Shown: positions 9,613-58,066 of the stretch, piece after piece
How positions within the stretch are numbered: position 1 is the stretch's first letter
Layout: each line of letters opens with the position of its first letter
DNA from: Escherichia coli
Lineage (GTDB): Bacteria; Pseudomonadota; Gammaproteobacteria; Enterobacterales; Enterobacteriaceae
Assembly: GCF_003790525.1 (NCBI RefSeq)
Contig: NZ_CP033635.1
Strand: one strand, 5' to 3'
Length of the DNA: 64,000 nucleotides
The notes under the pieces: generated by a model
What the model saw: the letters and a program-made list of their open reading frames with translations, nothing else
The model's database searches: none
What the model was told of the DNA's origin: nothing
Position numbers and translations under genes: made by a program

Positions 9613-9891
9613 TCATTTTATACCTGCAGCGCTCATTGACTGCCGCAGTGCATCCAGTCCTTGCTTACAGGCCATATCCTGACTGGCGTCAGGTAAAGCT
9701 GCAATTTGTTTTCGGGATTGTTCATATTGCTGTTTCAGCGTATTAACCTGTGCTTCTGGTGTTCCCATTTCCTTCATCTTTGCTACAAAATTATCGATTT
9801 CTTTATAATACTCTTCACATGCCGGAGTCAGTGCTGCACTGGCTGACATACTGAATAATACTGTAGTAAGTAAGACTGTAATTGTTTTCAT
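9613..9891 (-). CDS. small secreted protein of unknown function (signal peptide, two Cys)
   Basis: start at internal Met with AAGGAG RBS; MKTITVLLTTVLFSMSASA signal peptide; 92 aa. Confidence 0.6.
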   Translation of the reverse strand: MKTITVLLTTVLFSMSASAALTPACEEYYKEIDNFVAKMKEMGTPEAQVNTLKQQYEQSRKQIAALPDASQDMACKQGLDALRQSMSAAGIK

Positions 9892-43579: not shown

Positions 43580-44197
43580 GTGAGGAATATGAAAATGAAA
43601 CAACAGTATCAGACCCGTTACGAGCTGCTCCATGAAAACTACCAGAAATGGCTGACCGGCTTCACCCGGCACGCCGTATCATGGGGCGTGTGTCATCCGA
43701 ATATCTACTATTTCCATAATCTGACGCCCGGGTGGGTGTCATTCAATGGCGAAAAACCGGAGATTGCCATCGTTCCCCAGAGTCTGCACCGGCTGATTTA
43801 TGGTCCGGACAAACGGAGCTCCCCGTCCCTGGATGATGATCTGGTGGTGAATTTATGCACCAGCGAACACCTGCTGGTTCATCATCCGATGCTGGAAGGG
43901 ATCCTGCTGTCTGAATGTGAGCGCCTGAAGCAACATTCTCTGGCAAACAAACTGATCAGCCTCTTCCGTCAGTTTGGCGGCACGGAGTTACGTCTCAAAC
44001 TGGTCTGGCTCTGCTGGCTTGACTTAATGACCGGAAACAGCCTTGACGACTGGACGAAAAACCTGAAACACAAATCAGAAAAAGATCTGGAGCAATGGAT
44101 CATTGCACGTCAGGGTCAGAGTGAACCACTGACAAATCTGATGGATCAGTACGTGCTTATGGCATACCGTACATCGGTTGATGCCGCTCACAGTTGA
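43580..44197 (+). CDS. hypothetical protein (CP4-island backbone, unknown function)
   Basis: 205-aa ORF downstream of alpA; no recognisable motif. Confidence 0.5.
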   Translation: MRNMKMKQQYQTRYELLHENYQKWLTGFTRHAVSWGVCHPNIYYFHNLTPGWVSFNGEKPEIAIVPQSLHRLIYGPDKRSSPSLDDDLVVNLCTSEHLLVHHPMLEGILLSECERLKQHSLANKLISLFRQFGGTELRLKLVWLCWLDLMTGNSLDDWTKNLKHKSEKDLEQWIIARQGQSEPLTNLMDQYVLMAYRTSVDAAHS

Positions 44198-44739
44198 TGT
44201 CTGAGAACCACAGGGCTGGCAGCAGAAAACCAGCCCTGTGGTAAAATACAGTAATAGCGGCGTACATCAGGCACGCCGCTCACTCGTCCACAGATCATAT
44301 ACGTCATTATACTGCGCGATAACGGAGGGCTTCAGCACCCGGTCATTTCTGAGCGGGTATGAATACCATTGATGATGCGAAGCAGCCACGTGCAGAAACG
44401 TTCTTCACAACCAGGTGCCTCCATCTTCACTGCAGTCTGAATGTGCCGGCTTGTTATCCACCAGAAATGGTATGCTCCGGTACATGCATACCCCGGAGAC
44501 TATAAACGCACTGAATCATAGCCTCCCACCTCAGCAGGAGGCAGTCAGCTTTCAGGCGGAAAAACGTTGCAGTTAAAGATCGTGAGAATCGCTGTTTCGT
44601 TGCATAGCAACCCGAACAGTTGTAGTGAAACATTTTACCTGCATCAGCACATGGTCAGGCGCCGTCTGTATGGCGTGGAATACTGATGTTTCGGCTGATG
44701 GCAAGCCTCATTCTGTACTGACCCCAAAAAGTTGGACAG

Positions 44740-45591
44740 TTAAACACGAGGCATATAGGTCTGATTCCGATATTCAATTGGAGTCAGACTTTTTAATTTC
44801 AGGCTAATTCTTCTGCTGTTGTAGTATTCAATATATTCCGTAACAGCATCCTTCAGTTCGCTTATATTACTGAACTCATCAAGATAAAAACACTCCGACT
44901 TTAAGGTTCCAAAGAAACACTCCACCACAGCATTATCCAGACAATTGCCTTTTCTGGACATGCTTTGTTTAATACCATGTTCTTTAAGAATATTTTGATA
45001 TTTTCTCATACGATACTGCCATCCCTGGTCAGAGTGCAGAACAGGATGCTCGTGAGGATTAAGCTTTTTGAATGCCTGATCGAGCATATTCTCAACCATG
45101 TTCATCACTGGTCTTTCCGAAAGGCTGTAAGAAATAACTTCGTTGTTGAAGAGATCTATTACTGGAGACAAATACAGCTTGCGCCCATTGACTGCAAATT
45201 CAGTAACATCGGTAACCCACTTCTCGTTTGGCCGCGTAGCCTTGAAATCTCTTTGGAGAACATTAGGGGCGGTTTGCCCTACCTCTCCTCTGTAAGAGCG
45301 GTATCGCTTGACCTTAATCGCTGCTTTAAGTGAGAGGGTTCCCATCAGGCGCTGAACAGCTTTATGGTTAATCTGTTTCCCTTCTCGATGAAGAGACAGC
45401 GTTACCCTACGGTATCCGTATCGGCCTCTATTCTCGTGATAAATCTCACCAATACGCTTTTTAACGTCCGCATACTTGTCAGGCTTGCTGAGAGCCTTTA
45501 GATGGTAATAAAACGTACTGCGCGGTATCTCCGCAGCCCTGAGAAGCTCATCAAGAGGATAAAACTGCCTTAGCTCGTTGAGTACTTTCAC
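44740..45591 (-). CDS. insK: IS150 transposase OrfB (DDE domain)
   Basis: 283 aa; DDE blocks; overlaps orfA end as in IS150. Confidence 0.9.
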
Positions 45592-46109
45592 TTTTTCGTG
45601 GGATGAGCTAAGGCTTTCAGCTTTTTTAGATACATAAGCCGCGTTTCAAGAAATCGAACTTGCCTTTCAAGATCCTCAATACGTCGGTCTTTTGACAGCT
45701 CCAATGCTGATGCCGCTTTTTCTGGATCAACTGATATTGCAATGTTTCTTTTGGTGCCAATCTTGAGCGCGCGTAAACCAGCTTCTCCGCGCTCTTCATA
45801 AACCTTCAGCCACCTGGCTACAGAACCACTACCAGCAAGCATAAAGTGAGCAGCAGCCTGATTAAGGGACATGTGCTGCTCGATCACAGCTTTCACGACC
45901 TTAATACGCAACTCTGGATCAGCACTAACACCTTTAGGTTTGGGAATTAAACCTTTTTCTCCATGTTTTTCATAGAGGGCAACCCATGTCCTGACCTGGG
46001 TTCGGGGGACACCAAAACGTGCCGAGATGATCCTGTAACCATCATCAGTAGTGAAGTAGTGATTCACGACTTCAAGGCGCTTTTCAAAAGGGTATTTTGG
46101 CTTTGACAT
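45588..46109 (-). CDS. insJ: IS150 transposase OrfA
   Basis: 173 aa MSKPKYPFEKRLEVVNHYFTTDDGYRI.. matches IS150 InsJ as recalled. Confidence 0.9.
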   Translation of the reverse strand: MSKPKYPFEKRLEVVNHYFTTDDGYRIISARFGVPRTQVRTWVALYEKHGEKGLIPKPKGVSADPELRIKVVKAVIEQHMSLNQAAAHFMLAGSGSVARWLKVYEERGEAGLRALKIGTKRNIAISVDPEKAASALELSKDRRIEDLERQVRFLETRLMYLKKLKALAHPTKK

Positions 46110-48024
46110 ATCAGGGGCTATTCCATTTCATCGTCCAACAAAATGGGTGCAGTACATTCTCTGTGGAAACAGGGGCGCGCATTAGCTTCTCAACCAGAGA
46201 GTGTCACAAAGACAAATATTGCTGAAAATCGCATTCATCGTTCAGGCGTGAATGCCCGGAGACAAAAGCCGCTGTCCACACAGTCCCCCTCTGACCTGAA
46301 CAAAAAGCATACACACAACAGGCTCACCTGACCCCGAAAAACCATAACTTCAGCAATACCAGTGACACCAGCACGTTACCTCAGTGCCACATCTTCAGAC
46401 CGCGATCAATCTGAAATGTGACTATCGGGGCAATATCCCTGCTTTGTGGTACACGATAACCAGAAAACATCCCCTGAACCGCCAGCCAGAAAGACTGGCC
46501 ACAAAAGGGGTAAGCTGAAATCGTTTATGGATTACATCGACATATGCCTGGCAGAGAATGTCCGGAATGACGAGGTTATCTTTGCGGAGATTAAGGCAAT
46601 GGTATACGGGCCGACGTTCCATGCCGCGTTACTACATTCAGCCCGGACGTAAAATGCGCCCGTCAAAAAGAACGGTTCGCTTCGAAACTCAGCCAGGATA
46701 CCACCTCTCCGCCACACCCGGGAAGAAGTTGATATGGTGGTTGCCGGACAACAGCGCTCCTGGATTGACTGCTGCATCACTCAACCACGCTGAATATCAA
46801 AGGAGAGCGTTACCGGTTAAAAGAGAAACGTAAAGCTGTGGTGATGACCCAAAACGCAACGCCTGTCAGTGAGGATGAAATGGTGAAAAGCGGACAGCAT
46901 CAGTAACGGAAGTATCTTAGCGGGTACGAAAATGGCAGGATCGTGACATTGACAGAATATCTCCTGATCATCCTGAATGACTGCAGTTGCTGTAGAAAAG
47001 TAAGCTGTCTCCACCCACGGCACCACTTAACAGGCATTCCGTAACTTCCCCCAGACTTACTATGACGCATTATCGGTGCACTGAAAACGGGAGAGTGCGC
47101 TTAAAACCGCAGACCGCATGCGGGTGTTACTGCATGACAGTCTGGCCGTATTGTGAGATGTCGGCAGGAACCGATGTCCGCGCAGGGGGGAACTTCCTGC
47201 AGTACCTGACGCTTCAAATGGTATTAACCGTAGGGTGTTGTTGGTTCCGGATCGCGGAAATGGGAGCACAGGTCTGCTACGGGGTGTACCTCTGACAGTA
47301 AATCCGGCTCGCTCATCTGACAGCCTCTCTCCCGGAAAAGACCAAAAATGAGATCGTCTCCTCAACAGCAGAGAAGAGGTCTTGACAGACAGGCTACATT
47401 GCATACGATTTATGAAGAAAAAGACAGCAAATATGGAGGTTATAGCGGAGAATACCCTACGAAATTCCTATGAAAAACGATTGAAAAAAATATCAAATTC
47501 GATTCGTTTTTATATGCTTTTTGGGAGCGTGGCGATGACGAACTGTTGCATGTGCAGAGGAGAATGCACCCGGAAGCACCAGAATCATCCAGAAAGGCAG
47601 AACGATTACGCATCAAACCAGGAGACAGCAATATCAAGGTAATATACTGATTTAAAATGAATTTACAGCAATACGTGAAAACATTTTTTACTTAAAGGAG
47701 ACAGATGCGCTGAAGAGAGTGCAGGTATTTTTATATAAAAATGAGAAGTTTACGGGATGTATATCCGGCACACTATGACCGGAGAATATCAGTCAAGCTT
47801 AAAAAGACAATAAATACAGTGAGTTAAATACACAGAGAAAACGTAGTATCAGAGGGTACATCTTACAACAGAGACTGAATTTCCGGTTTTTCATAACCGG
47901 CGCATTCCGGAAAGTGCAGGCGGCCCGGAGGTTTTCTGACGCCACTACCTGGTAGATTGTTCTGTACATCATGTACGGAGGTTTTTGTTTGCTTTTTTAA
48001 AATCTGCAAATGTGAGAAAAGCAG

Positions 48025-49188
48025 GTGAGGTGTATTGTGGGAAAGGAACTGGATGATATCTGCACCAGCTGTCCGTATATCGATACTGTAAAACGGCACA
48101 AACAACAGCTCGGTGCCATAGAGGAATATACACAGTGGTTAAAAAAAGAACCACGGGCATCTTATTTTTTTCTGTTCCAGCTGTATACCCGCATTCACAA
48201 TACATTTTTCTCCCAAAAGCAACAACTCCCGTTCACTCCCGGTGGCACTCACTGCCCGGAACCTGATGTCACCCTTCGGGACTTAACGCTTTCCCCTGGC
48301 TACCACAGTGATTATGCCCCTCAACCCATTCCGGAGATGGACAGTTCTGCTGTTGTTCCCCCAACTAATGAAAACACCTCGCCTCCGGAAGATACTCCCG
48401 ACAACACTCCGGCCGGAGGCAATACCGGACAAGCGGAAAAGACCAGAAACGCAGGACTCACACCCATTCCTGAAAAACGTTCAGGAATGCCCCCGGAACA
48501 TCTGCGGTTTGCCACGGGGTTTCCATCGCAACCGAAGATTGCCGGTCCCAGAGAAAAGCCGATGCGCACCGTGCATCCGGATAAAATCTACCGTGAAATT
48601 ATATGGTTCTGCTCCAGTTACCTGCTGAAATCCGGACCAGAGGCTACGAGGACGATTATCAACTCAGTATTCTCTGAATGGGCCAGCATAAACAATGATT
48701 ACCCCTCCCCCTTTTCGTGGGTGGACAGCAGGGACAGTGAACAGTGTGACTGGTTATGGAACGCCATGCAGATCCGGTGTGTGGGAACCCCGCTGAATCC
48801 CCTTACCCCGGAGCAGAAATACTGGTTTGCCTGCGCCACGTTTGATAACTGGGAGGGCTGGAATGAGCAACAGGTACAGTTTTTACTGGAAAGTAATCCC
48901 AGACGGAACAGAGCGAAGTTTACGCAGGTCTCCTTCCAGGCCCCCAGGATTCAGCATAAAGCGATTCTTCTTGATGAGCTGAAAAGTGCCCGGGAGCAAC
49001 AAAAAAGGCGTGATGAACGTGCTGATGGTTCCGTCCCTCTGAAACTGTCCGGAAAAATCCACAAACAGCTTGAAAGTATTGCCCGAAGTCGTGGTGTCCT
49101 CCCAAAAAAACTGCTGAATGAAATGATTGAGCAGGCGTACCATGATTTGGTGGCAACCAGGCAGAACAGCCAAATCGATTCCAGATAA
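48025..49188 (+). CDS. hypothetical protein with Pro/Thr-rich low-complexity linker (island backbone, unknown function)
   Basis: 387-aa ORF ending 45-84 bp upstream of the YeeP-family GTPase gene; start codon uncertain. Confidence 0.5.
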   Translation: MRCIVGKELDDICTSCPYIDTVKRHKQQLGAIEEYTQWLKKEPRASYFFLFQLYTRIHNTFFSQKQQLPFTPGGTHCPEPDVTLRDLTLSPGYHSDYAPQPIPEMDSSAVVPPTNENTSPPEDTPDNTPAGGNTGQAEKTRNAGLTPIPEKRSGMPPEHLRFATGFPSQPKIAGPREKPMRTVHPDKIYREIIWFCSSYLLKSGPEATRTIINSVFSEWASINNDYPSPFSWVDSRDSEQCDWLWNAMQIRCVGTPLNPLTPEQKYWFACATFDNWEGWNEQQVQFLLESNPRRNRAKFTQVSFQAPRIQHKAILLDELKSAREQQKRRDERADGSVPLKLSGKIHKQLESIARSRGVLPKKLLNEMIEQAYHDLVATRQNSQIDSR

Positions 49189-49271
49189 TTTCAGACAGAT
49201 ATTATTTCCGTGAATCCCCCGCCACCTTTCCGGTGCGCGGGGTTTTGTCTTTTTTCACCGGGAATACATGT

Positions 49272-50144
49272 ATGAATCCGTCTGATGCCATTGAGGCAAT
49301 TGAAAAACCGCTCTCCTCCCTGCCTTACTCACTTTCCCGTCACATCCTGGAACATCTGCGCAAACTCACCAGTCACGAACCCGTGCCTGGCATTATGGGT
49401 AAAAGCGGGGCCGGTAAATCCTCACTCTGTAATGCGCTGTTTCAGGGGGAGATCACCCCGGTCAGTGATGTTCACGCCGGCACCCGGGAAGTGCAGCGCT
49501 TCCGTCTGAATGGCCATGGTCACAGCATGGTTATCACTGACCTGCCCGGGGTGGGCGAGAGCCGGGACAGGGATGCAGAGTATGAAGCCCTGTACCGTGA
49601 CATTCTGCCCGAACTGGACCTGGTACTGTGGCTGATTAAAGCCGATGACCGTGCCCTGTCTGTGGATGAGTATTTCTGGCGACACATCCTGCACCGGGGA
49701 CATCAGCGGGTACTGTTTGTGGTGATGCAGGCCGATAAAACGGAGCCCTGCCATGAATGGGATATGGCCGGTATTCAGCCTTCTCCCGCACAGGCACAGA
49801 ACATTCGCGAAAAAACGGAGGCGGTATTCCGTCTGTTCCGGCCCGTACATCGGGTTGTTGCCGTATCGGCCCGCACCGGCTGGGAACTGGATACGCTGGT
49901 CAGTGCGCTCATGACAGCACTTCCCGACCATGCCGCCAGTCCCCTGATGACCCGCCTGCAGGACGAGCTGCGCACGGAATCTGTCCGCGCTCAGGCCCGT
50001 GAACAGTTTACCGGTGCGGTGGACCGGATATTTGACACGGCGGAGAGCGCCTGTATTGCCTCTGTTGCACGCACGGTTCTGCGTGCCGTCCGTGACTCGG
50101 TGGTCTCTGTTGCCCGCGCGGTATGGAACTGGATTTTCTTCTGA
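49272..50144 (+). CDS. YeeP/YfjP/YkfA-family small GTPase (50S-ribosome-binding GTPase fold)
   Basis: P-loop GIMGKSGAGKSS, DLPG (G3) and Mxxx ADK-like G4; start taken at MNPSDAIEAIEKP. Confidence 0.8.
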   Translation: MNPSDAIEAIEKPLSSLPYSLSRHILEHLRKLTSHEPVPGIMGKSGAGKSSLCNALFQGEITPVSDVHAGTREVQRFRLNGHGHSMVITDLPGVGESRDRDAEYEALYRDILPELDLVLWLIKADDRALSVDEYFWRHILHRGHQRVLFVVMQADKTEPCHEWDMAGIQPSPAQAQNIREKTEAVFRLFRPVHRVVAVSARTGWELDTLVSALMTALPDHAASPLMTRLQDELRTESVRAQAREQFTGAVDRIFDTAESACIASVARTVLRAVRDSVVSVARAVWNWIFF

Positions 50145-50260
50145 ACCCGGTGGTGATGTACCAGGCTGTTGTTACAGATTTTTAACTCCATGAAAACACT
50201 ATGCAAACGCAGCCATACCCGGGTTGTCCCCTTGCGTTGTGTTTCTCAAGTTAATAGAAT

Positions 50261-50305
50261 GCATCGATCGTTACTATCATATCGATCGTTATAAACGATC
50301 GTTTG
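50261..50305. promoter_or_regulatory. cluster of three GATC-containing palindromic repeats (ATCGATCGTTA x2, AAACGATCGTTT) upstream of the dynamin-like operon; candidate Dam/OxyR-type phase-variation switch
   Basis: GATC at 50266, 50284 and 50297 within 35 bp, embedded in direct/palindromic repeats; sits where the agn43 (flu) regulatory region lies in CP4-44. Confidence 0.5.
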
Positions 50306-50361
50306 TAGTAAATGACCTCCTCCGTGGTTGTCATGAAAATGCGTCTTAGGAAGGTTAAATA

Positions 50362-52758
50362 ATGCACGAAAAGAACATCGCCCTGCTTTGTGATGAAGCC
50401 GACCGACTTTTGCAACTGAACATTAATCTGCTCCGGCAAATGGTTGAGGAGCCAGATGTGTTATCTGACAGTAAGAACGAAAACAGACTGCTTTTTGATA
50501 AACAGAAAGCACTGAAAAGAATTGAGGAGCTGGAGGGCGAACAAATCAAAACCGCCCGCAGGGAGATGGTGCTGGCTGTTGTCGGCACGATGAAAGCAGG
50601 CAAATCAACCACCATCAACGCCATTGTGGGGCAGGAAATTCTGCCTAACCGTAACCGCCCCATGACCTCTGTACCGACGCTCATCCGCCACGTTCCCGGA
50701 AAAACTGAGCCGGTTCTCCATCTGGAACATATTCAGCCTGTCCGCAATTTATTAATCACACTGCAGGAAAAACTCGCCACCCCGGCAGGACAGCAGGTCG
50801 CACAGACCCTGCAGCAAACCGGGGATACCCGCGAACTGCTGGATATTCTGACGGATGATGGCTGGCTCAAAAATGAATACCACGGGGAGGAGGAAATCTT
50901 TACCGGACTGGCATCGTTAAACGATCTGGTTCGTCTTGCTGCGGCAATGGGGACTGAATTTCCTTTTGATGAATACGCAGAAGTGCAGAAACTGCCGGTG
51001 ATCGACGTGGAATTCAGCCATCTGGTGGGGATGGATGCATGCCAGGGAACACTCACACTGCTGGATACCCCCGGCCCTAATGAGGCCGGACAACCGCAGA
51101 TGGAAGTGATGATGCGGGATCAACTGCAGAAAGCCTCTGCGGTTCTGGCTGTGATGGATTACACCCAGATGAACTCAAAAGCGGATGAAGACGTCCGTAA
51201 AGAGCTTAATGCCATTGCTGACGTATCAGCCGGCCGCCTGTTTGTACTGGTCAATAAATTTGATGAGAAAGACCGCAATGGCGATGGGGCAGATGCCGTA
51301 CGCCAGAAAGTTCCGGCAATGCTGAACAGCGATGTGCTGCCCGCCTCCCGCGTTTATCCCGGATCCTCACGCCAGGCATACCTGGCTAACCGTGCGCTTC
51401 ATGAGTTACGGAAAAACGGAACCCTTCCTGTTGATGAAGCCTGGGTCGATGATTTTATCAGAGGTGCCTTCGGTTGCATGAAAAAAGAATACGTCTGTAA
51501 AGACAGTGAACTGGCAACTGAAGGGGCGACAGACCTGTGGGAAGGCTCACTTATCGATCAACTGATAACGGAAGTCATACAGAGCTCACATTCCAGAGCT
51601 GCGGCACTGGCGGTTGACTCTGCCGCCGCAAAACTGATGCAGAATGCAGAAAATATCAGTGAATACCTGTTGTTACGCCATCAGGGGCTACAGCAAAGCA
51701 TTCAGTCACTGCAGTCGCATATCACCAGCCTGCTTGCGGATATCCGGGAAATCGCGGACTGTCAGGAGCAGATGACCACTGATGTCAGAATGGCCATGGA
51801 GGAGATCGATACTAAAACCCGGGAATTACTGACGGGGGTCTGCACCTCACTGGAAGAGGAGCTGAATGACTATTTCAGAAGCGGTAAACGCAAAGAACAG
51901 CAAATGCTGGAGGAAGAAGACGCAGAACAACGAAGGTCTCAGTCCGGATTATGGGGGAAAATTTCTCAATGGTCCGGTATCAACAACCAGGGCCGGGAGG
52001 ATTACAGGAAACGAGATTTTGCCCCGGACAGCCCCGAAATAAAATTCAGTGATCGCAGGGAAGCCCTTGAACTGATGACGCAAATCGAATCGACCGTGAC
52101 CAGCCTGCACCGTGAGGCTGAAGCACAGTTCCGGCCTGAGCTGGAGAAAATCGTCAGCGGGATTGAAACAGGTTTTCGTGGCACGGCCCTGTACGCCACA
52201 GAAAACATTGCCGGTCGCATCAATGCCCGCCTGGAGGATGAGGGCTTTACCGTAAAAATCAGTTTTCCGGCAGTCAGCCAGTTACAGACCCGGCTCGCGG
52301 TAAAAATAAATCTGAGTGCGCTTATGGAGGAAAGAACGGAGACCGTCACCCGTCGCCGTCGGCAGAGTGGCGTATGGGGAACCGTTTGTCGATGGTTTGG
52401 CACCAGTGACCTGGGCTGGGAAAACTATGACGAGGATGTGAGTCGCAGCGTGATCAATATCAACAAGGTCAGAGAGGAAGTTATGTCACTGACCCGGGCA
52501 TATTTCGGGGAGCTGCAGGCATCCATTGAGCAGGATATTAACCAGCCCGTCCGCCAGGAAATCGATGCCTTTTTCTGCGCATTCAGGGAGAAAGTTGAAC
52601 AACTGCGTAACACGCTGATTCAGAGCTCTGAAGATCATAAACGCGATCAGCAGGCGCAGGAACGGCTTACCGGGCGACTTCAGGCATTAAATGAAAGGGT
52701 TCCTGAGCTCATTACTGACAGTAAGGCGCTGAGGGAAGAGCTGGAGACAATGCTGTGA
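50362..52758 (+). CDS. dynamin-like GTPase (bacterial dynamin-like protein; CrfC/YjdA paralog)
   Basis: 798 aa; AGGAAGG RBS; P-loop GTMKAGKST (G75-S82), G3 LLDTPGPNEAGQ, G4 VLVNKFDE; N-terminal 330 aa closely parallel K-12 YjdA/CrfC as recalled; long coiled-coil C-terminal half. Confidence 0.85.
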   Translation: MHEKNIALLCDEADRLLQLNINLLRQMVEEPDVLSDSKNENRLLFDKQKALKRIEELEGEQIKTARREMVLAVVGTMKAGKSTTINAIVGQEILPNRNRPMTSVPTLIRHVPGKTEPVLHLEHIQPVRNLLITLQEKLATPAGQQVAQTLQQTGDTRELLDILTDDGWLKNEYHGEEEIFTGLASLNDLVRLAAAMGTEFPFDEYAEVQKLPVIDVEFSHLVGMDACQGTLTLLDTPGPNEAGQPQMEVMMRDQLQKASAVLAVMDYTQMNSKADEDVRKELNAIADVSAGRLFVLVNKFDEKDRNGDGADAVRQKVPAMLNSDVLPASRVYPGSSRQAYLANRALHELRKNGTLPVDEAWVDDFIRGAFGCMKKEYVCKDSELATEGATDLWEGSLIDQLITEVIQSSHSRAAALAVDSAAAKLMQNAENISEYLLLRHQGLQQSIQSLQSHITSLLADIREIADCQEQMTTDVRMAMEEIDTKTRELLTGVCTSLEEELNDYFRSGKRKEQQMLEEEDAEQRRSQSGLWGKISQWSGINNQGREDYRKRDFAPDSPEIKFSDRREALELMTQIESTVTSLHREAEAQFRPELEKIVSGIETGFRGTALYATENIAGRINARLEDEGFTVKISFPAVSQLQTRLAVKINLSALMEERTETVTRRRRQSGVWGTVCRWFGTSDLGWENYDEDVSRSVININKVREEVMSLTRAYFGELQASIEQDINQPVRQEIDAFFCAFREKVEQLRNTLIQSSEDHKRDQQAQERLTGRLQALNERVPELITDSKALREELETML

Positions 52759-53660
52759 CTTCACCATTTATTCAACAAATTGCTGATAACCGGGTATGTC
52801 AGGTACTCACCTGTCTTCCTGAAAAATTTGTGGTTGATTTCGCAAACGGAATCGATGTTGCACAGGAGCATATCCGCACGGCCGGAGAGCGCACGTTCTT
52901 CCGGCGTTTAAAAGAGGGGCTGACCGGCGAAGGCGCTGCACGGCAGAATGCCATCAATGCGTCGCTTGCACAGGGCGTTGAGGCGTCCCTGCGCTGGCTG
53001 ACGGAGATGACAACGTCACTTGCCACCACAAACTACGCGATTACCCGGGTAAACGACAGGGTCAGTTCACTGGTCAGTGATACAGCCAGGCTGGCGCATT
53101 ATTCCGCAGATACGCGGGAGCAGTTACTCACCCTGGCCGATCAGGTTCACCATAAACTGAATCATCTTGAAGAAAAACTCCACCGTGTTGACCAGGTTCA
53201 GCGGGCGCAGTTACATCTTGAGCAGATATTCTCATGGTGGAGCGCCGGGCGATATGCGTCATTTTCCCCTGCCGGACGTTGTTATGTGGCACTTGAAGAG
53301 CTTCGCTGGGGCGCGTTTGGTGATGTGATACGTCAGAGCGAAACAGGCCAGGTTAACCAGCTACTGGATATTCTCAGACATAAAGCATTAACGCAGATGG
53401 CACAGGAGAGTGGCGGTAGTGCAACCGTGCGTCTGAACACTCTGGACTGGCTTGGTGGTCAGGGCCGGGAGCAGGCAGATAACGAGTGGCATGACGCGAT
53501 TAACTGGCTGGGAGACTGGTGCAGTGAAGAGCAGCATCCGGTGATCTGGTCAACCACGCAGGCTGCAGAACACTTACCGGTTCGCATGCCTCGCCTCTGC
53601 TCTGCAGAACGCCTCTCTGAAAGTATGGTCGATGAAATATTTCAGAAGGGGGCTGCATGA
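52755..53660 (+). CDS. YjcZ-like protein (partner of dynamin-like GTPase), unknown function
   Basis: 301 aa; GTG start overlapping upstream stop (GTGA); same gene order as yjdA-yjcZ in K-12. Confidence 0.6.
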   Translation: MTSPFIQQIADNRVCQVLTCLPEKFVVDFANGIDVAQEHIRTAGERTFFRRLKEGLTGEGAARQNAINASLAQGVEASLRWLTEMTTSLATTNYAITRVNDRVSSLVSDTARLAHYSADTREQLLTLADQVHHKLNHLEEKLHRVDQVQRAQLHLEQIFSWWSAGRYASFSPAGRCYVALEELRWGAFGDVIRQSETGQVNQLLDILRHKALTQMAQESGGSATVRLNTLDWLGGQGREQADNEWHDAINWLGDWCSEEQHPVIWSTTQAAEHLPVRMPRLCSAERLSESMVDEIFQKGAA

Positions 53661-54727
53661 GTACAGAAATGAAAACGGGGCTGGTGCTGTCCGGTGGCGG
53701 GGCGGTGGGCGCTTATCAGGCGGGAGTGGTTAAGGCACTGGCAGAGTGTGGTACACAGATCAGCATGGTTTCAGGGGCCAGCATTGGCGCATTCAATGGT
53801 GCCATTATCGCGGCCTCTACCGATCTGTCAGAAGCTGCCGTACGCCTGGAGGCGCTCTGGGATCATCTGGGGAATAATCAGGTGCTGTCGGTAAACAGAT
53901 TGGTTTACTTTTCATTGCTGAAAAAATTGTTCCAGGCAATGAACCTCTGCCAGATCCCCGGACGTGCAGGAGCACTGCTTACGACGCTTCTTCGCCATAT
54001 ATCGACAATCAACGGGTTTGACAATCTGATGGCTCAGCCGTTGTTGTCAGATGAGCCCCTGACAGCGCTGATGGATCATTATCTTGATACTGATGCTCTG
54101 GCAGACGGGCTACCGCTGTATGTGTCGCTGTACCCCACAGAAGGGGGCATGCAGGATATTATTGACTGCATTCGTGCTGAACTGGGTGTCGGAACCACGA
54201 AAAACGCCGTTTTTCAGCATATCCAGAGCCTGCCCCGCGGACAGCAGAAAGAGGCTCTGCTTGCGTCAGCCGCGCTGCCCCTGCTGTTCCGTCCCCGTGA
54301 GGTTCAGGGGACAATGTTCGGTGATGGTGGTATGGGAGGATGGCGAAATATGCAGGGAAATACCCCTGTGACGCCTCTGGTCGATGCCGGATGCAATATG
54401 GTGATTGTGACGCATCTGAGTGACGGTTCTTTATGGGATCGCCAGGCTTTTCCGGACACCACAATCCTTGAGATCCGTCCCCGGAAAAGGCTGAAATATG
54501 CAGGTGATGGTGGCAACAGCGGCGGTCTGCTCAGTTTTACATCGGCACATACCGACGCCTGGCGTCAGCAGGGCTATGAAGACACGATGCTGGCGATGGA
54601 GCATATCCGGAAACCGCTGGCAGCACGTCAGGCACTGACCCGGTCAGAGGCGGTATTGCAGAAAAGCCTGGATATAACGGAAGAGGCAGATTTGGCACTG
54701 AGAAACGCGATGGCCCGGATTAAATAA
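53657..54727 (+). CDS. patatin-like phospholipase
   Basis: 356 aa; oxyanion/glycine-rich loop GLVLSGGGAVGAYQAG, nucleophile elbow GASIG (Ser42), catalytic Asp motif FGDGGM; ATG overlaps upstream stop (ATGA). Confidence 0.85.
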   Translation: MSTEMKTGLVLSGGGAVGAYQAGVVKALAECGTQISMVSGASIGAFNGAIIAASTDLSEAAVRLEALWDHLGNNQVLSVNRLVYFSLLKKLFQAMNLCQIPGRAGALLTTLLRHISTINGFDNLMAQPLLSDEPLTALMDHYLDTDALADGLPLYVSLYPTEGGMQDIIDCIRAELGVGTTKNAVFQHIQSLPRGQQKEALLASAALPLLFRPREVQGTMFGDGGMGGWRNMQGNTPVTPLVDAGCNMVIVTHLSDGSLWDRQAFPDTTILEIRPRKRLKYAGDGGNSGGLLSFTSAHTDAWRQQGYEDTMLAMEHIRKPLAARQALTRSEAVLQKSLDITEEADLALRNAMARIK

Positions 54728-54859
54728 AGACGCCCCAAAGAAACGCCACCGCCTGTGGTGGTGTTTTTCCTGTCTGGTGTTATTGAAAATATTTTCAGAT
54801 ATATATTACCTGAGAGAAAGTTTTACCCCTCACCTGTCAATTCACTCACTGGAAATTTA

Positions 54860-55546
54860 ATTATGAAATTACCTGTAAAGTTATTAATGAGCCTTATATC
54901 TCTGGTCAGCGTTATTGCACGTGCCGGGGAATATAAAAATTACAGCCGGGATGAAATAAAATACTGGCGATATACATCATACAAGGGGGGGAAACTTCCG
55001 GAAGGTTTCACTGATGAGAAATTTTCCAGCGCCATTTACAACGGAAGAATATTTACAATGAAACGTTTACATACCCTTATGTTATTTCTGGCGGTTCTGT
55101 TCACGGGCTTTAACTTTAACGCAGAAGCGGCTACCGTAAAACAAGCTCTTAGTTGTAACCCGGAAGCCTGGGCTGAACAACCTGGAGCGTGTCCATCAAC
55201 GTACGAGTTGTACGAAGGTGACGCTACCTACAAAGCCGCTATCGACAAAGCATTAAAACCGGTCGGACTGAGCGGCATGTTCGGTAAAGGCGGCTATATG
55301 GATGGCCCTGGTGGAGGTATCACGCCAGTAAACATTAACGGTACAGTCTGGTTCCAGGGCGACGGTTGCAAAGCCAATACCTGCGGCTGGGACTTTATCG
55401 TAACACTCTATAACCCAAAAACCCATGAAGTTGTTGGCTACCGTTACTTTGGTTTAGATGACCCGGCCTACCTGGTTTGGTTCGGTGAAATTGGCGTGCA
55501 TGAATTCGCGTATCTGGTGAAAAACTACGTAGCTGCGGTTAACTAA
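54860..55546 (+). CDS. secreted/periplasmic protein of unknown function (possibly lysozyme-inhibitor-like); start uncertain (alternative ATG at 55060)
   Basis: in-frame ORF with two signal-peptide-like segments (MKLPVKLLMSLISLVSVIARA and MKRLHTLMLFLAVLFTGFNFNAEA); Cys-containing C-terminal domain. Confidence 0.45.
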   Translation: MMKLPVKLLMSLISLVSVIARAGEYKNYSRDEIKYWRYTSYKGGKLPEGFTDEKFSSAIYNGRIFTMKRLHTLMLFLAVLFTGFNFNAEAATVKQALSCNPEAWAEQPGACPSTYELYEGDATYKAAIDKALKPVGLSGMFGKGGYMDGPGGGITPVNINGTVWFQGDGCKANTCGWDFIVTLYNPKTHEVVGYRYFGLDDPAYLVWFGEIGVHEFAYLVKNYVAAVN

Positions 55547-55561
55547 TTTAAGGAGTCTATC

Positions 55562-55972
55562 ATGAAAACTTTTATCAAAACTTTACTCGTTGCTGTAACT
55601 ATTCTGTTCTCTGTCTTCGCTACTGCGAAACAAGTAAAACTGCCAAATAACATCAAATACGTTAATACTACAGAAGCGTTTTCCTGTACCGAAATTGACG
55701 GTATGAATTGCCAGACAAAGAATCAGTTCAACTATAAAGATAACAGCTATGTTTTCGTGCTTGAGCGTGGTGGTGCCTGGTGCTACGACTACACTGTCTC
55801 GGTAGTTAACCTGAAAACCGGGAAAGCACAAATGATTGAATACGGGGACAATCAACTGTGCTCAGGTAGCAACAAACCGTTCTTCGAAATCAAAAATGGC
55901 GTACCGACGGTAGGAGTCATCGACACATCCGGAAAACCTGTCGTTGTAGCCCAGGACAAACTTAAAATCTAA
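55562..55972 (+). CDS. small secreted protein of unknown function (signal peptide, 6 Cys)
   Basis: AAGGAG RBS; MKTFIKTLLVAVTILFSVFATA signal peptide; 136 aa. Confidence 0.6.
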   Translation: MKTFIKTLLVAVTILFSVFATAKQVKLPNNIKYVNTTEAFSCTEIDGMNCQTKNQFNYKDNSYVFVLERGGAWCYDYTVSVVNLKTGKAQMIEYGDNQLCSGSNKPFFEIKNGVPTVGVIDTSGKPVVVAQDKLKI

Positions 55973-56192
55973 GGAGTAAACCATGCGTTTCTCTGCACAT
56001 TATTAATATCAAAGGTAAATACAGCCCCAGCCATTGTTACCGGAAAGCCGCTTAATGCGTGGCTCGCCAGTGAAAGGCCTCTCAGACAATAAACCTTATT
56101 CATTTCACCCGTCAGGCCGCGTCTTCTCCGGGAGACGCGGCTTTTTTCATTTATTGCACCAGTAAATCTTAACCACCGATAAGGAGCAAAGT

Positions 56193-57013
56193 ATGCGATT
56201 AGCCAGTCGTTTTGGTTATGCTGCAAACCAGATACGCCGTGACCGTCCGCTGACACATGAAGAACTGATACGCCATGTACCCAGTATTTTTGGGGAAGAC
56301 CGGCACATCTCCCGCAGTGAACGGTATGCGTACATTCCCACCATTACCGTCCTGGAAAATCTGCAGCGGGAAGGCTTTCAGCCGTTCTTCGCCTGCCAGA
56401 CCCGTGTGCGCGACCCGGGCCGCCGGGGATACACAAAACACATGCTGCGTCTGCGGCGGGCCGGAGAGATAAACGGAGAACATGTCCCTGAAATTATTCT
56501 GCTCAACTCTCATGACGGTACCTCCAGCTACCAGATGCTGCCGGGTTACTTCAGGTTCGTCTGCCAGAACGGGTGCGTCTGTGGCCAGTCTCTGGGGAAG
56601 TGCGTGTTCCACACCGGGGAAATGTAGTGGAGAAAGTTATCGAAGGGGCTTACGAGGTGGTGGGCGTGTTTGACCGGATAGAGGAGAAGCGTGATGCCAT
56701 GCAGTCGCTGGTCCTGCCGCCACCGGCACGCCAGGCGCTGGCACAGGCGGCACTGACTTACCGTTATGGTGACGAACATCAGCCCGTCACCACCGCCGAC
56801 ATTCTGACGCCGCGACGCCGGGAGGATTACGGTAAGGACCTGTGGAGCGCATATCAGACCATCCAGGAGAATATGCTGAAAGGCGGGATTTCCGGTCGCA
56901 GTGCCAGAGGAAAACGTATCCATACCCGGGCCATTCACAGCATTGATACCGACATTAAGCTCAATCGCGCATTGTGGGTGATGGCAGAAACGATGCTGGA
57001 GAGCCTGCGCTGA
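56193..57013 (+). pseudogene. DUF932 (YfjQ/YafZ-family) gene, frameshifted
   Basis: two overlapping ORFs (56193-56627, 56573-57013) in different frames; LLNSHDGTSSYQ motif. Confidence 0.6.
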
Positions 57014-57094
57014 TGCCGTTTCCCTGAGTGAGGGAATCATTCAGCTTTCGTTCCTGAAAAACACACATTTATTTGTTATTTAAGGAGTTATCTC

Positions 57095-57574
57095 ATGAAA
57101 ACCGTTTCTCAGAATACCCCCACAATTTATTCAGCTACAACACCAGAGAATAATCCGCCTCAGTTGGTTGCCAGCCTCGTCCCTGATGAACAGCGCATCA
57201 GCTTCTGGCCGCAGCATTTTGGCCTCATTCCACAGTGGGTGACCCTGGAGCCCCGTGTCTTCGGCTGGATGGACCGTCTGTGCGAAGACTACTGCGGTGG
57301 TATCTGGAATCTGTACACCCTGAACAACGGCGGGGCATTTATGGTACCCGAACCGGATGACGATGATGACGAAACATGGGTACTGTTCAATGTCATGAAC
57401 GGTAACCGCGCTGAAATGAGCCCGGAAGCCGCCGGCATTGCTGCCTGTCTGATGACGTACAGTCATCATGCCTGTCGTACAGAGTGTTATGCCATGACGG
57501 TCCATTATTACCGGCTGCGGGATTACGCCCTGCAGCATCCGGAATGCAGCGCCATTATGCGCATCATCGACTGA
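57095..57574 (+). CDS. antirestriction protein (KlcA/ArdB-like, YfjX family)
   Basis: 159 aa; GGIWNLYTLNNGGAFM and acidic DDDDDE patch typical of CP4-island antirestriction proteins. Confidence 0.75.
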   Translation: MKTVSQNTPTIYSATTPENNPPQLVASLVPDEQRISFWPQHFGLIPQWVTLEPRVFGWMDRLCEDYCGGIWNLYTLNNGGAFMVPEPDDDDDETWVLFNVMNGNRAEMSPEAAGIAACLMTYSHHACRTECYAMTVHYYRLRDYALQHPECSAIMRIID

Positions 57575-58066
57575 ATGGAGAGAAGCACAATGCAACAACT
57601 TTCCTTTCTGCCAGGAGAGATGACGCCCGGCGAGCGCAGCCTCATTCTGCGGGCCCTGAAAACCCTGGACCGCCATCTTCATGAACCCGGCGTGCCCTTC
57701 ACCTCCACCCGTGCGGCACGGGAATGGCTGATTCTGAACATGGCGGGACTGGAGCGTGAAGAATTCCGGGTGCTGTATCTGAATAACCAGAATCAGCTGA
57801 TTGCCGGTGAAACCCTCTTCACCGGCACCATCAACCGCACGGAAGTCCATCCCCGGGAAGTGATTAAACGCGCCCTGTATCACAATGCCGCTGCCGTGGT
57901 GCTGGCACACAATCACCCGTCCGGTGAAGTCACACCCAGCAAGGCAGACTGCCTTATCACGGAACGTCTGGTACAGGCACTGGGCCTGGTGGATATCCGG
58001 GTGCCGGACCATCTGATAGTCGGTGGCAACCAGGTTTTCTCCTTTGCCGAACATGGTCTGCTTTAA
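57575..58066 (+). CDS. RadC-like JAB-domain protein (YeeS/YfjY family)
   Basis: JAMM-like motif HNHPSGEVTPSKAD. Confidence 0.8.
   Translation: MERSTMQQLSFLPGEMTPGERSLILRALKTLDRHLHEPGVPFTSTRAAREWLILNMAGLEREEFRVLYLNNQNQLIAGETLFTGTINRTEVHPREVIKRALYHNAAAVVLAHNHPSGEVTPSKADCLITERLVQALGLVDIRVPDHLIVGGNQVFSFAEHGLL

Follow-up and report, generated by a model that had tools for sequence, protein, structure and literature searches.

What connects a small GTPase gene on an Escherichia coli genomic island with the dynamin-family operon that follows it? The question is raised by a 64,000-nucleotide (nt) stretch of E. coli DNA (NCBI RefSeq assembly GCF_003790525.1, contig NZ_CP033635.1), hereafter the window. 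Here a gene for a 383-amino-acid (aa) protein, an intact yeeP gene and an operon encoding dynamin-family, RdcB-family and patatin-like proteins follow one another on the plus strand. The original prediction, made from the letters of this DNA without database searches, had asked whether the two GTPases cooperate. We favour, with a probability of roughly 75%, a reading in which three units are juxtaposed: a backbone gene for a probable DNA-binding protein, a yeeP gene probably controlled by an attenuator, and a cargo operon transcribed from a separate promoter that is probably phase-variable. The first two genes would then adjoin the dynamin operon because the operon is cargo inserted at a hotspot just 3' of yeeP.

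The window carries an island of the E. coli CP4-44/SRL type. The island adjoins tmaR/yeeA, and its tail holds DUF932, antirestriction, YeeS, YeeT and CbeA/CbtA genes, as annotated by the Prokaryotic Genome Annotation Pipeline (PGAP) in E. coli SMS-3-5. Positions 47600-50400 match SMS-3-5 with one mismatch, at 50261, and the PGAP order in that strain is hypothetical protein (48037-49188), GTPase family protein (49272-50144), dynamin-family protein, RdcB-family protein and patatin-like phospholipase. Both open reading frames (ORFs) ahead of the operon lie on the plus strand. The first, at its longest, spans 48025-49188 and encodes the 387-aa protein originally described; the ORF and its Pro/Thr-rich linker are real, and a GTG at 48037 is the better start, giving 383 aa, in agreement with PGAP in SMS-3-5 and with a Shine-Dalgarno sequence (AGGTGAGG) 6 nt upstream. 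The GTPase ORF at its longest is 49233-50144; PGAP and all 76 aligned relatives agree on the ATG at 49272 as the start (290 aa, MNPSDAIE...). The gap between the two genes measures 83 nt to this ATG, or 44 nt to the longest GTPase ORF, in place of the 45-84 bp first reported, while the 217 nt between the GTPase and the dynamin-family gene at 50362 (50145-50361) had been given exactly. Both ORFs are real genes and not chance ORFs, because the GTPase matches MMR_HSR1 and homologues of the 383-aa protein at ~15-30% identity yield a confident fold.

The GTPase scores 54.6 bits (1.4e-14) against MMR_HSR1 (PF01926; cut-off 21.9). It is 49% identical to K-12 YfjP over its full length (291 columns, E 2e-95) and 96% identical to the remnant of the K-12 yeeP pseudogene. 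It is therefore an intact yeeP orthologue and, judged by sequence, a member of the YeeP/YfjP/YkfA family, in line with the original assignment. The G motifs are kept and aligned (G1 GKSGAGKS, G3 DLPGVGE and a G4-like QADK), and the hydrophobic C-terminal tail (VVSVARAVWNWIFF) is highly conserved. Its G domain resembles those of Era/Der-type TRAFAC GTPases, with the Era and MnmE models matching at about 1e-12, but it falls far under the Era equivalog cut-off (48.6 vs 237 bits). Unlike Era, YeeP has no KH or other RNA-binding domain, and it has instead a family-specific C-terminal helical region besides the tail. With K-12 YeeP, YfjP and YkfA (in CP4-44, CP4-57 and CP4-6) it shares the island position ahead of Ag43 or DUF932 and a promoter-hairpin leader. 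The context of the island GTPase family, a CP4-type position ahead of Ag43/DUF932, antirestriction, RadC and CbeA/CbtA genes, is likewise found in SMS-3-5, K-12 and O157. Against K-12, yeeP is intact here and a pseudogene there, it carries the substitutions I39P and P194R, and it is followed by the dynamin-family operon, not by flu or yfjQ. In the open literature we found no functional study, and no GTP-binding or hydrolysis assay, of any YeeP/YfjP/YkfA member.

We determined how tightly these genes are linked in 5426 complete E. coli genomes. The GTPase occurs in 4538 of them (about 84%), at 9725 places and in up to 7 places per genome, the 383-aa gene in 2096 and the dynamin operon in 2612. 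The junction between 383-aa gene and GTPase is intact in 969 genomes, and that between GTPase and dynamin gene in 1973. In most of the 9725 copies homology stops at the stop codon of the GTPase, which bears out the suggestion that a YeeP-type GTPase is the last conserved gene ahead of variable cargo; what follows it differs between islands and may be Ag43/Cah, the dynamin operon, DUF932 or a WYL regulator. In other islands the 383-aa gene loses its homology 32 bp ahead of the stop codon, and in three loci (L002-L004) cargo sits between this gene and the GTPase. Several arrangements result. One has the 383-aa gene, TonB-receptor/ABC cargo, a yeeP lacking residues 66-207 and an intact dynamin operon; another has the 383-aa gene, three unrelated genes, the GTPase and Ag43. 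In O157:H7 and RM14721 the GTPase is followed by Cah/Ag43 and then by the dynamin operon. Elsewhere the 383-aa gene is missing, and a type I restriction-modification (R-M) system precedes the GTPase and the dynamin operon; K-12 CP4-57 has rnlAB, yfjP and yfjQ.

Across species, we sampled one genome per species, which gave 80 GTPase loci in the Enterobacterales, 76 of them usable for the upstream gene. The dynamin operon was present at a single one of the 80, in E. albertii, and the usual gene 3' of the GTPase was a WYL/helix-turn-helix protein or DUF932. A gene of the 383-aa family lay at most 155 bp upstream of the GTPase in 24 of the 76 loci and within 8 kb in 29. Metagenomic relatives of the 383-aa protein, at 22-31% identity, are directly followed by a 287-291-aa MMR_HSR1 GTPase and have AlpA and a Gp2-like gene upstream. 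As relatives this distant also precede a YeeP-type GTPase, the 383-aa gene and the GTPase together belong to the conserved island backbone. Thus, the conserved pair consists of these two genes and not of the GTPase and the dynamin gene, and the island has two cargo hotspots, one between the 383-aa gene and the GTPase, which goes beyond what had been noted before, and one 3' of the GTPase, where the dynamin operon is one cargo.

The 217-nt spacer ahead of the operon aligns with the spacers between GTPase and Ag43/cah genes and with the K-12 yeeP-isrC-flu region. It contains GATC sites at 50266, 50284 and 50297, at distances of 11, 29 and 42 nt counted from the start of the -10 hexamer, compared with 11, 30 and 43 nt in K-12 and O157. 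The K-12 counterpart, TTGTCC-17-TAGAAT, is a sigma-70 promoter identified by systematic evolution of ligands by exponential enrichment (SELEX; PMC3946193), and three GATC sites with OxyR competition constitute the Dam/OxyR phase switch of agn43 (PMC4872104, PMC3764049). Relative to the K-12 flu (agn43) and O157 cah switches, the -35 element, the 17-nt spacer, the -10 TAGAAT and the three GATC sites are kept at near-equal spacing; GATC-I and GATC-II are 18 nt apart here vs 19, and the leader diverges after GATC-III. Unlike in agn43, the putative switch would drive a dynamin/RdcB/patatin operon and not an autotransporter, and OxyR is predicted to bind it. Given the homology to the agn43/cah regulatory region, an agn43-type promoter seems to have been joined to the dynamin operon. 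The spacer likely carries an independent promoter of the operon, which would make the operon a third unit, probably phase-variable via Dam and OxyR. The single mismatch with SMS-3-5, G for A, falls directly after the -10 TAGAAT.

The GTPase has a regulatory region of its own. About 95 nt ahead of its start are kept in 76 of 76 loci whatever gene lies upstream (100 nt upstream of the GTPase start compared in loci L016-L095), comprising a box, a hairpin, a U-run, the Shine-Dalgarno sequence and the ATG. The box is a palindrome around the -10 element, AGATA-T-TATCT in most YeeP-type loci and AGATA-T-TATTT in the window, and the -35 element reaches back into the final codons of the 383-aa gene. 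Genomic SELEX in K-12 located constitutive sigma-70 promoters, TTGAAA-15-TATCAT, upstream of ykfA and yfjPQ (PMC3946193), and the box encloses the yfjP site, with the hairpin following closely. The GTPase thus has its own predicted sigma-70 promoter, because the box is conserved in 76 loci and its K-12 equivalents are SELEX sites. Judged by sequence and by the published SELEX data, the genes form separate transcription units, the outcome that the original prediction had given as its own refutation.

The hairpin that follows resembles a leader terminator, and its T-run ends 16 nt ahead of the GTPase ATG. The 90-nt intergenic region holding it folds at -30.5 kcal/mol (z = -3.84 vs shuffled sequence). 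In the YfjP-type group, compensatory changes were found at 7 of 8 hairpin pairs; covariation counts were weaker in the YeeP-type alignment because of register shifts. RNAalifold found no consensus structure for all 75 leaders taken together, because the hairpins of the two GTPase subgroups are out of register, and splitting the subgroups resolved this. A search of Rfam over 44000-58000, with E up to 1, gave nothing relevant, so that the leader module is without an Rfam match. Transcription of yeeP would begin at the promoter that overlaps the palindromic, operator-like box, and the transcript would meet the terminator ~5 nt past the predicted start. Since the terminator lies in the path, every transcript must pass it, whether it reads through from upstream or is initiated at the promoter. 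Attenuation probably sets yeeP expression, and the promoter-hairpin module may act as an attenuator or as an operator.

Table 1. Features of the 383-aa gene, yeeP and the dynamin operon, with positions in the window.
Feature	Position	Strand	Basis or details
383-aa protein gene	48037..49188	+	ORF; PGAP CDS WP_000514103.1
N-terminal helical hairpin, aa 13-62	48073..48222	+	pLDDT 83-96; motif W-LK--PRA-YF-LF
Disordered Pro/Thr-rich linker, aa 72-137	48250..48447	+	pLDDT <50
Trp-rich helical domain, aa 181-329	48577..49023	+	motifs W215, PFSW-D, EQC-W-W, FD-W-GW, KA--Q-R
Probable ribbon-helix-helix segment, aa 330-382	49024..49182	+	AlphaFold secondary structure, hhalign
Predicted GTPase promoter/operator box	49179..49214	+	-35 TTCCAG 49179-49184, 15-nt spacer, -10 TATTAT 49200-49205
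Predicted leader terminator/attenuator	49217..49255	+	10-bp GC-rich hairpin 49217-49242, then TTTTGTCTTTTTT 49243-49255
Intact yeeP orthologue, 290-aa Era-like GTPase	49272..50144	+	MMR_HSR1; identity to YfjP and K-12 yeeP remnant
agn43-type regulatory spacer	50145..50361	+	-35 TTGCGT 50232-50237, 17 nt, -10 TAGAAT 50255-50260
Cargo operon: dynamin-family/CrfC-like, RdcB/YjcZ-family, patatin-like phospholipase	50362..54727	+	Pfam, NCBIfam, PGAP

Is the GTPase of this lineage still functional? Its allele carries I39P (codon 49386-49388), directly ahead of the P-loop, at a position that is Ile in 75 of 76 relatives, and P194R (codon 49851-49853), where 73 of 76 have Pro. Each substitution is unique among the 76, yet both are fixed in SMS-3-5 and ~940 near-identical genomes, and they may impair GTPase function. 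Lesions of the gene occur elsewhere too: yeeP is a 5'-truncated pseudogene in K-12 and is frameshifted in RM14721, and in B2-type strains an in-frame internal deletion removes residues 66-207, most of the G domain, while the N-terminus and tail are kept. We rejected a simple truncation for the resulting 144-aa B2-type protein (L002:16423-16857, strain FDAARGOS_1266; hypothetical in IHE3034), as it corresponds to this internal deletion. One might conclude from such lesions, and from two changes at near-invariant positions, that the GTPase is decaying and functionally compromised, a relic beside the cargo. However, the ORF is full-length, its G1 and G3 motifs, tail, promoter and leader are intact, and the allele is widespread without further lesions. 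We regard decay as the best surviving alternative to the three-unit reading, though a doubtful one.

In the three-unit reading, the 383-aa protein would regulate or organise island DNA. It had no match among Pfam, NCBIfam, PHROG or PADLOC models. A word-indexed search of 5.8 billion proteins returned 21 clusters, of which those with a named source were all from E. coli, and an exhaustive profile search of 1.84 billion gave 60 representatives, including full-length relatives at roughly 15-30% identity. The protein is thus a member of a small undescribed family, confined within these searches to Enterobacterales islands. With a shallow alignment of 5 sequences, AlphaFold modelled the monomer at a predicted local distance difference test (pLDDT) of only 36. 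Once relatives from the exhaustive search and from the cross-species loci had been added to the alignment, the model became confident, reaching pLDDT 78.5 and a predicted template modelling score (pTM) of 0.70 with 53 sequences. In the N-terminal hairpin, W34 and R40 are almost invariant across the family, and the linker differs between homologues in length and sequence. The distant relatives keep W215, PFSW-D, EQC-W-W, FD-W-GW, KAW-QK-R and a C-terminal beta-alpha-alpha-like segment. A short conserved segment, PPEHLRFATGF at aa 148-157 (48478-48507; pLDDT ~93), stands amid an otherwise disordered region; it carries an ANG motif in distant relatives and resembles a docking motif.

At the C-terminus, the model shows an extended VPLKLSG (331-338) followed by helices at 339-352 and 356-382. 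Comparison with ribbon-helix-helix (RHH) repressors (CopG, CopB/RepA2, YbfE) placed the last ~50 residues in register with CopG (hhalign E 1.1e-4, probability 56%); the other matches were weak. Family members gave convergent but weak hits to CopB/RepB-RCR_reg, PRK13702, YbfE and RHH_1, all below the Pfam and NCBIfam cut-offs, and profile matches in the PDB were to CopG, SvtR and MatP (E 0.13-0.9). The C-terminus is, by model and profile comparison, a probable RHH DNA-binding domain, and together with the fold it suggests a dimeric, sequence-specific DNA-binding protein. MatP has the same order, a helical bundle and then RHH, and its alignment is collinear over 110 columns at an hhalign probability of only 40%. 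No match to the Pfam MatP families (PF06303 / PF17414) was found in 24 family members at E up to 0.1, and Foldseek to MatP gave E about 7, a resemblance and not membership. Among the matches listed, a search for MatP homologues yielded only near-identical E. coli sequences; a better MatP profile could not be built, and MatP-likeness therefore remains a lead only.

Such a protein next to an NTPase invites comparison with partition, positioning and transfer-establishment systems, and by that analogy the 383-aa protein and YeeP could form a dedicated two-component island module, a DNA adaptor with its NTPase. Their synteny is kept at 22-31% identity with gaps of 84-155 bp, and the pair heads a conserved block of DUF932, antirestriction, RadC and toxin-antitoxin genes. 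The RHH or MatP-like domain might have its target in the palindromic box at the GTPase promoter, and the conserved GTPase tail could mediate membrane or protein contacts. On the other hand, cargo often splits the two genes, a terminator lies between them, a family gene is missing from the 8 kb around many GTPase genes, and one short family subgroup (P0070) precedes DUF932 with no GTPase. Sequences upstream of the genes of the 383-aa family, the one in the window among them, were searched for the GTPase box and for iterated repeats of operator type; the box was absent, and no consistent repeats appeared. A dedicated module is unlikely on balance, if less so than the alternatives that follow, and its stronger form is more doubtful still. 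In that form, the MatP-like/RHH protein would mark island DNA, possibly via the GTPase-promoter box, and recruit or control an attenuator-gated Era-like GTPase, which together would make up an unrecognised maintenance or establishment module of an extensive family of Enterobacterales integrative islands.

The three-unit reading, in which the pair would have a role in island housekeeping, has to accommodate several observations that weigh against it. More than half of the cross-species loci lack a family gene within 8 kb upstream, so that the backbone pair is not obligate, and the scores behind the RHH and MatP assignments all lie below threshold. The remaining points concern the dynamin operon. 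Of the 2612 genomes with the operon, 1973 keep the direct junction with the GTPase, a frequent linkage that the spread of a single ancestral arrangement would also explain. The YeeP G domain weakly resembles Dynamin_N (2.7e-8) and LeoBC (5.2e-8), and dynamin-like systems with several GTPase partners exist. We found no strong terminator 3' of yeeP, so that some transcripts may continue into the operon, and YeeP might also contact the dynamin physically.

With the adjacency across 217 bp, these last points are what would favour YeeP as a functional partner of the dynamin-like GTPase, encoded in one operon as a subunit or regulator of a dynamin/RdcB/patatin machine. As in LeoABC/Eleos-type systems, the gene for a large dynamin-like protein lies close to that for a smaller GTPase, but the LeoBC match of YeeP covers the G domain only (85 of 601 profile positions), and YeeP and the operon show no conserved co-occurrence. 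The GTPase is followed by the operon at only 1 of the 80 cross-species loci, most of the 9725 GTPase places precede other genes, and the operon remains intact both behind Cah/Ag43 and behind a yeeP that has lost most of its G domain. The spacer, moreover, bears an agn43-type promoter of its own. To our knowledge, no YeeP-like gene lies beside rdcA and rdcB of K-12. Cooperation between the two GTPases, which the original prediction had left open, is thus very improbable. Still less probable is an anti-phage defence or anti-defence role of the 383-aa/GTPase pair: pairs of an NTPase and a DNA-binding protein are common in defence systems, and such islands carry defence genes close by (rnlAB with abpAB in CP4-57, a type I R-M system in E47 and, in other species, upstream HNH- and NotI-like genes), but PADLOC gave no system-level match beyond weak G-domain similarity, the 383-aa protein has no PHROG match, and both genes behave as conserved backbone and not as variable cargo.

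The first protein of the operon is CrfC/RdcA-like (NF007368, 1.2e-166, below cut-off) and not LeoA-like, and the first two operon genes have chromosomal paralogues in K-12, rdcA and rdcB (names from PMC6510439). After the patatin stop codon, a terminator-like hairpin (GCCACC...GGTGGTG with a T-run) lies within 54728-54862, and before the next gene the sequence TTTCAGATATATATTAC at 54793-54809 resembles the YfjP-type promoter box with 3 mismatches, a match of marginal significance. Two small hypothetical genes follow (54863-55972), the second matching phrog_8968. They recur 3' of YeeP-type GTPases elsewhere without the dynamin operon (e.g. Salmonella diarizonae, L039 and L038), and are therefore a separate unit. 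At 56193-57013, DUF932 is present as two overlapping ORFs (56193-56627 and 56573-57013) vs one intact 273-aa CDS in SMS-3-5, likely a frameshift in this strain. On the other side of the locus, ~1.1 kb without a convincing ORF (46906-48036) separates IS21/IstB remnants from the 383-aa gene. Within it, TTGACA-16-TACGAT (47382-47409) is a strong promoter-like site, and a hairpin with a T-run (47960-47990) precedes the start codon of the 383-aa gene by ~50 nt.

The genes themselves are ordinary island backbone, and what the locus adds is modest: an orphan protein family, a promoter-attenuator leader and an agn43-type switch on a dynamin/patatin operon. The dynamin/RdcB/patatin operon is best treated as a cargo unit complete in itself rather than as a system that depends on YeeP. 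About 84% of complete E. coli genomes encode YeeP-type GTPases, and many of them have more than one copy. For the organisation of these islands, the SELEX-supported promoter with its covarying leader terminator, the orphan partner family and the two cargo hotspots offer experimental handles.

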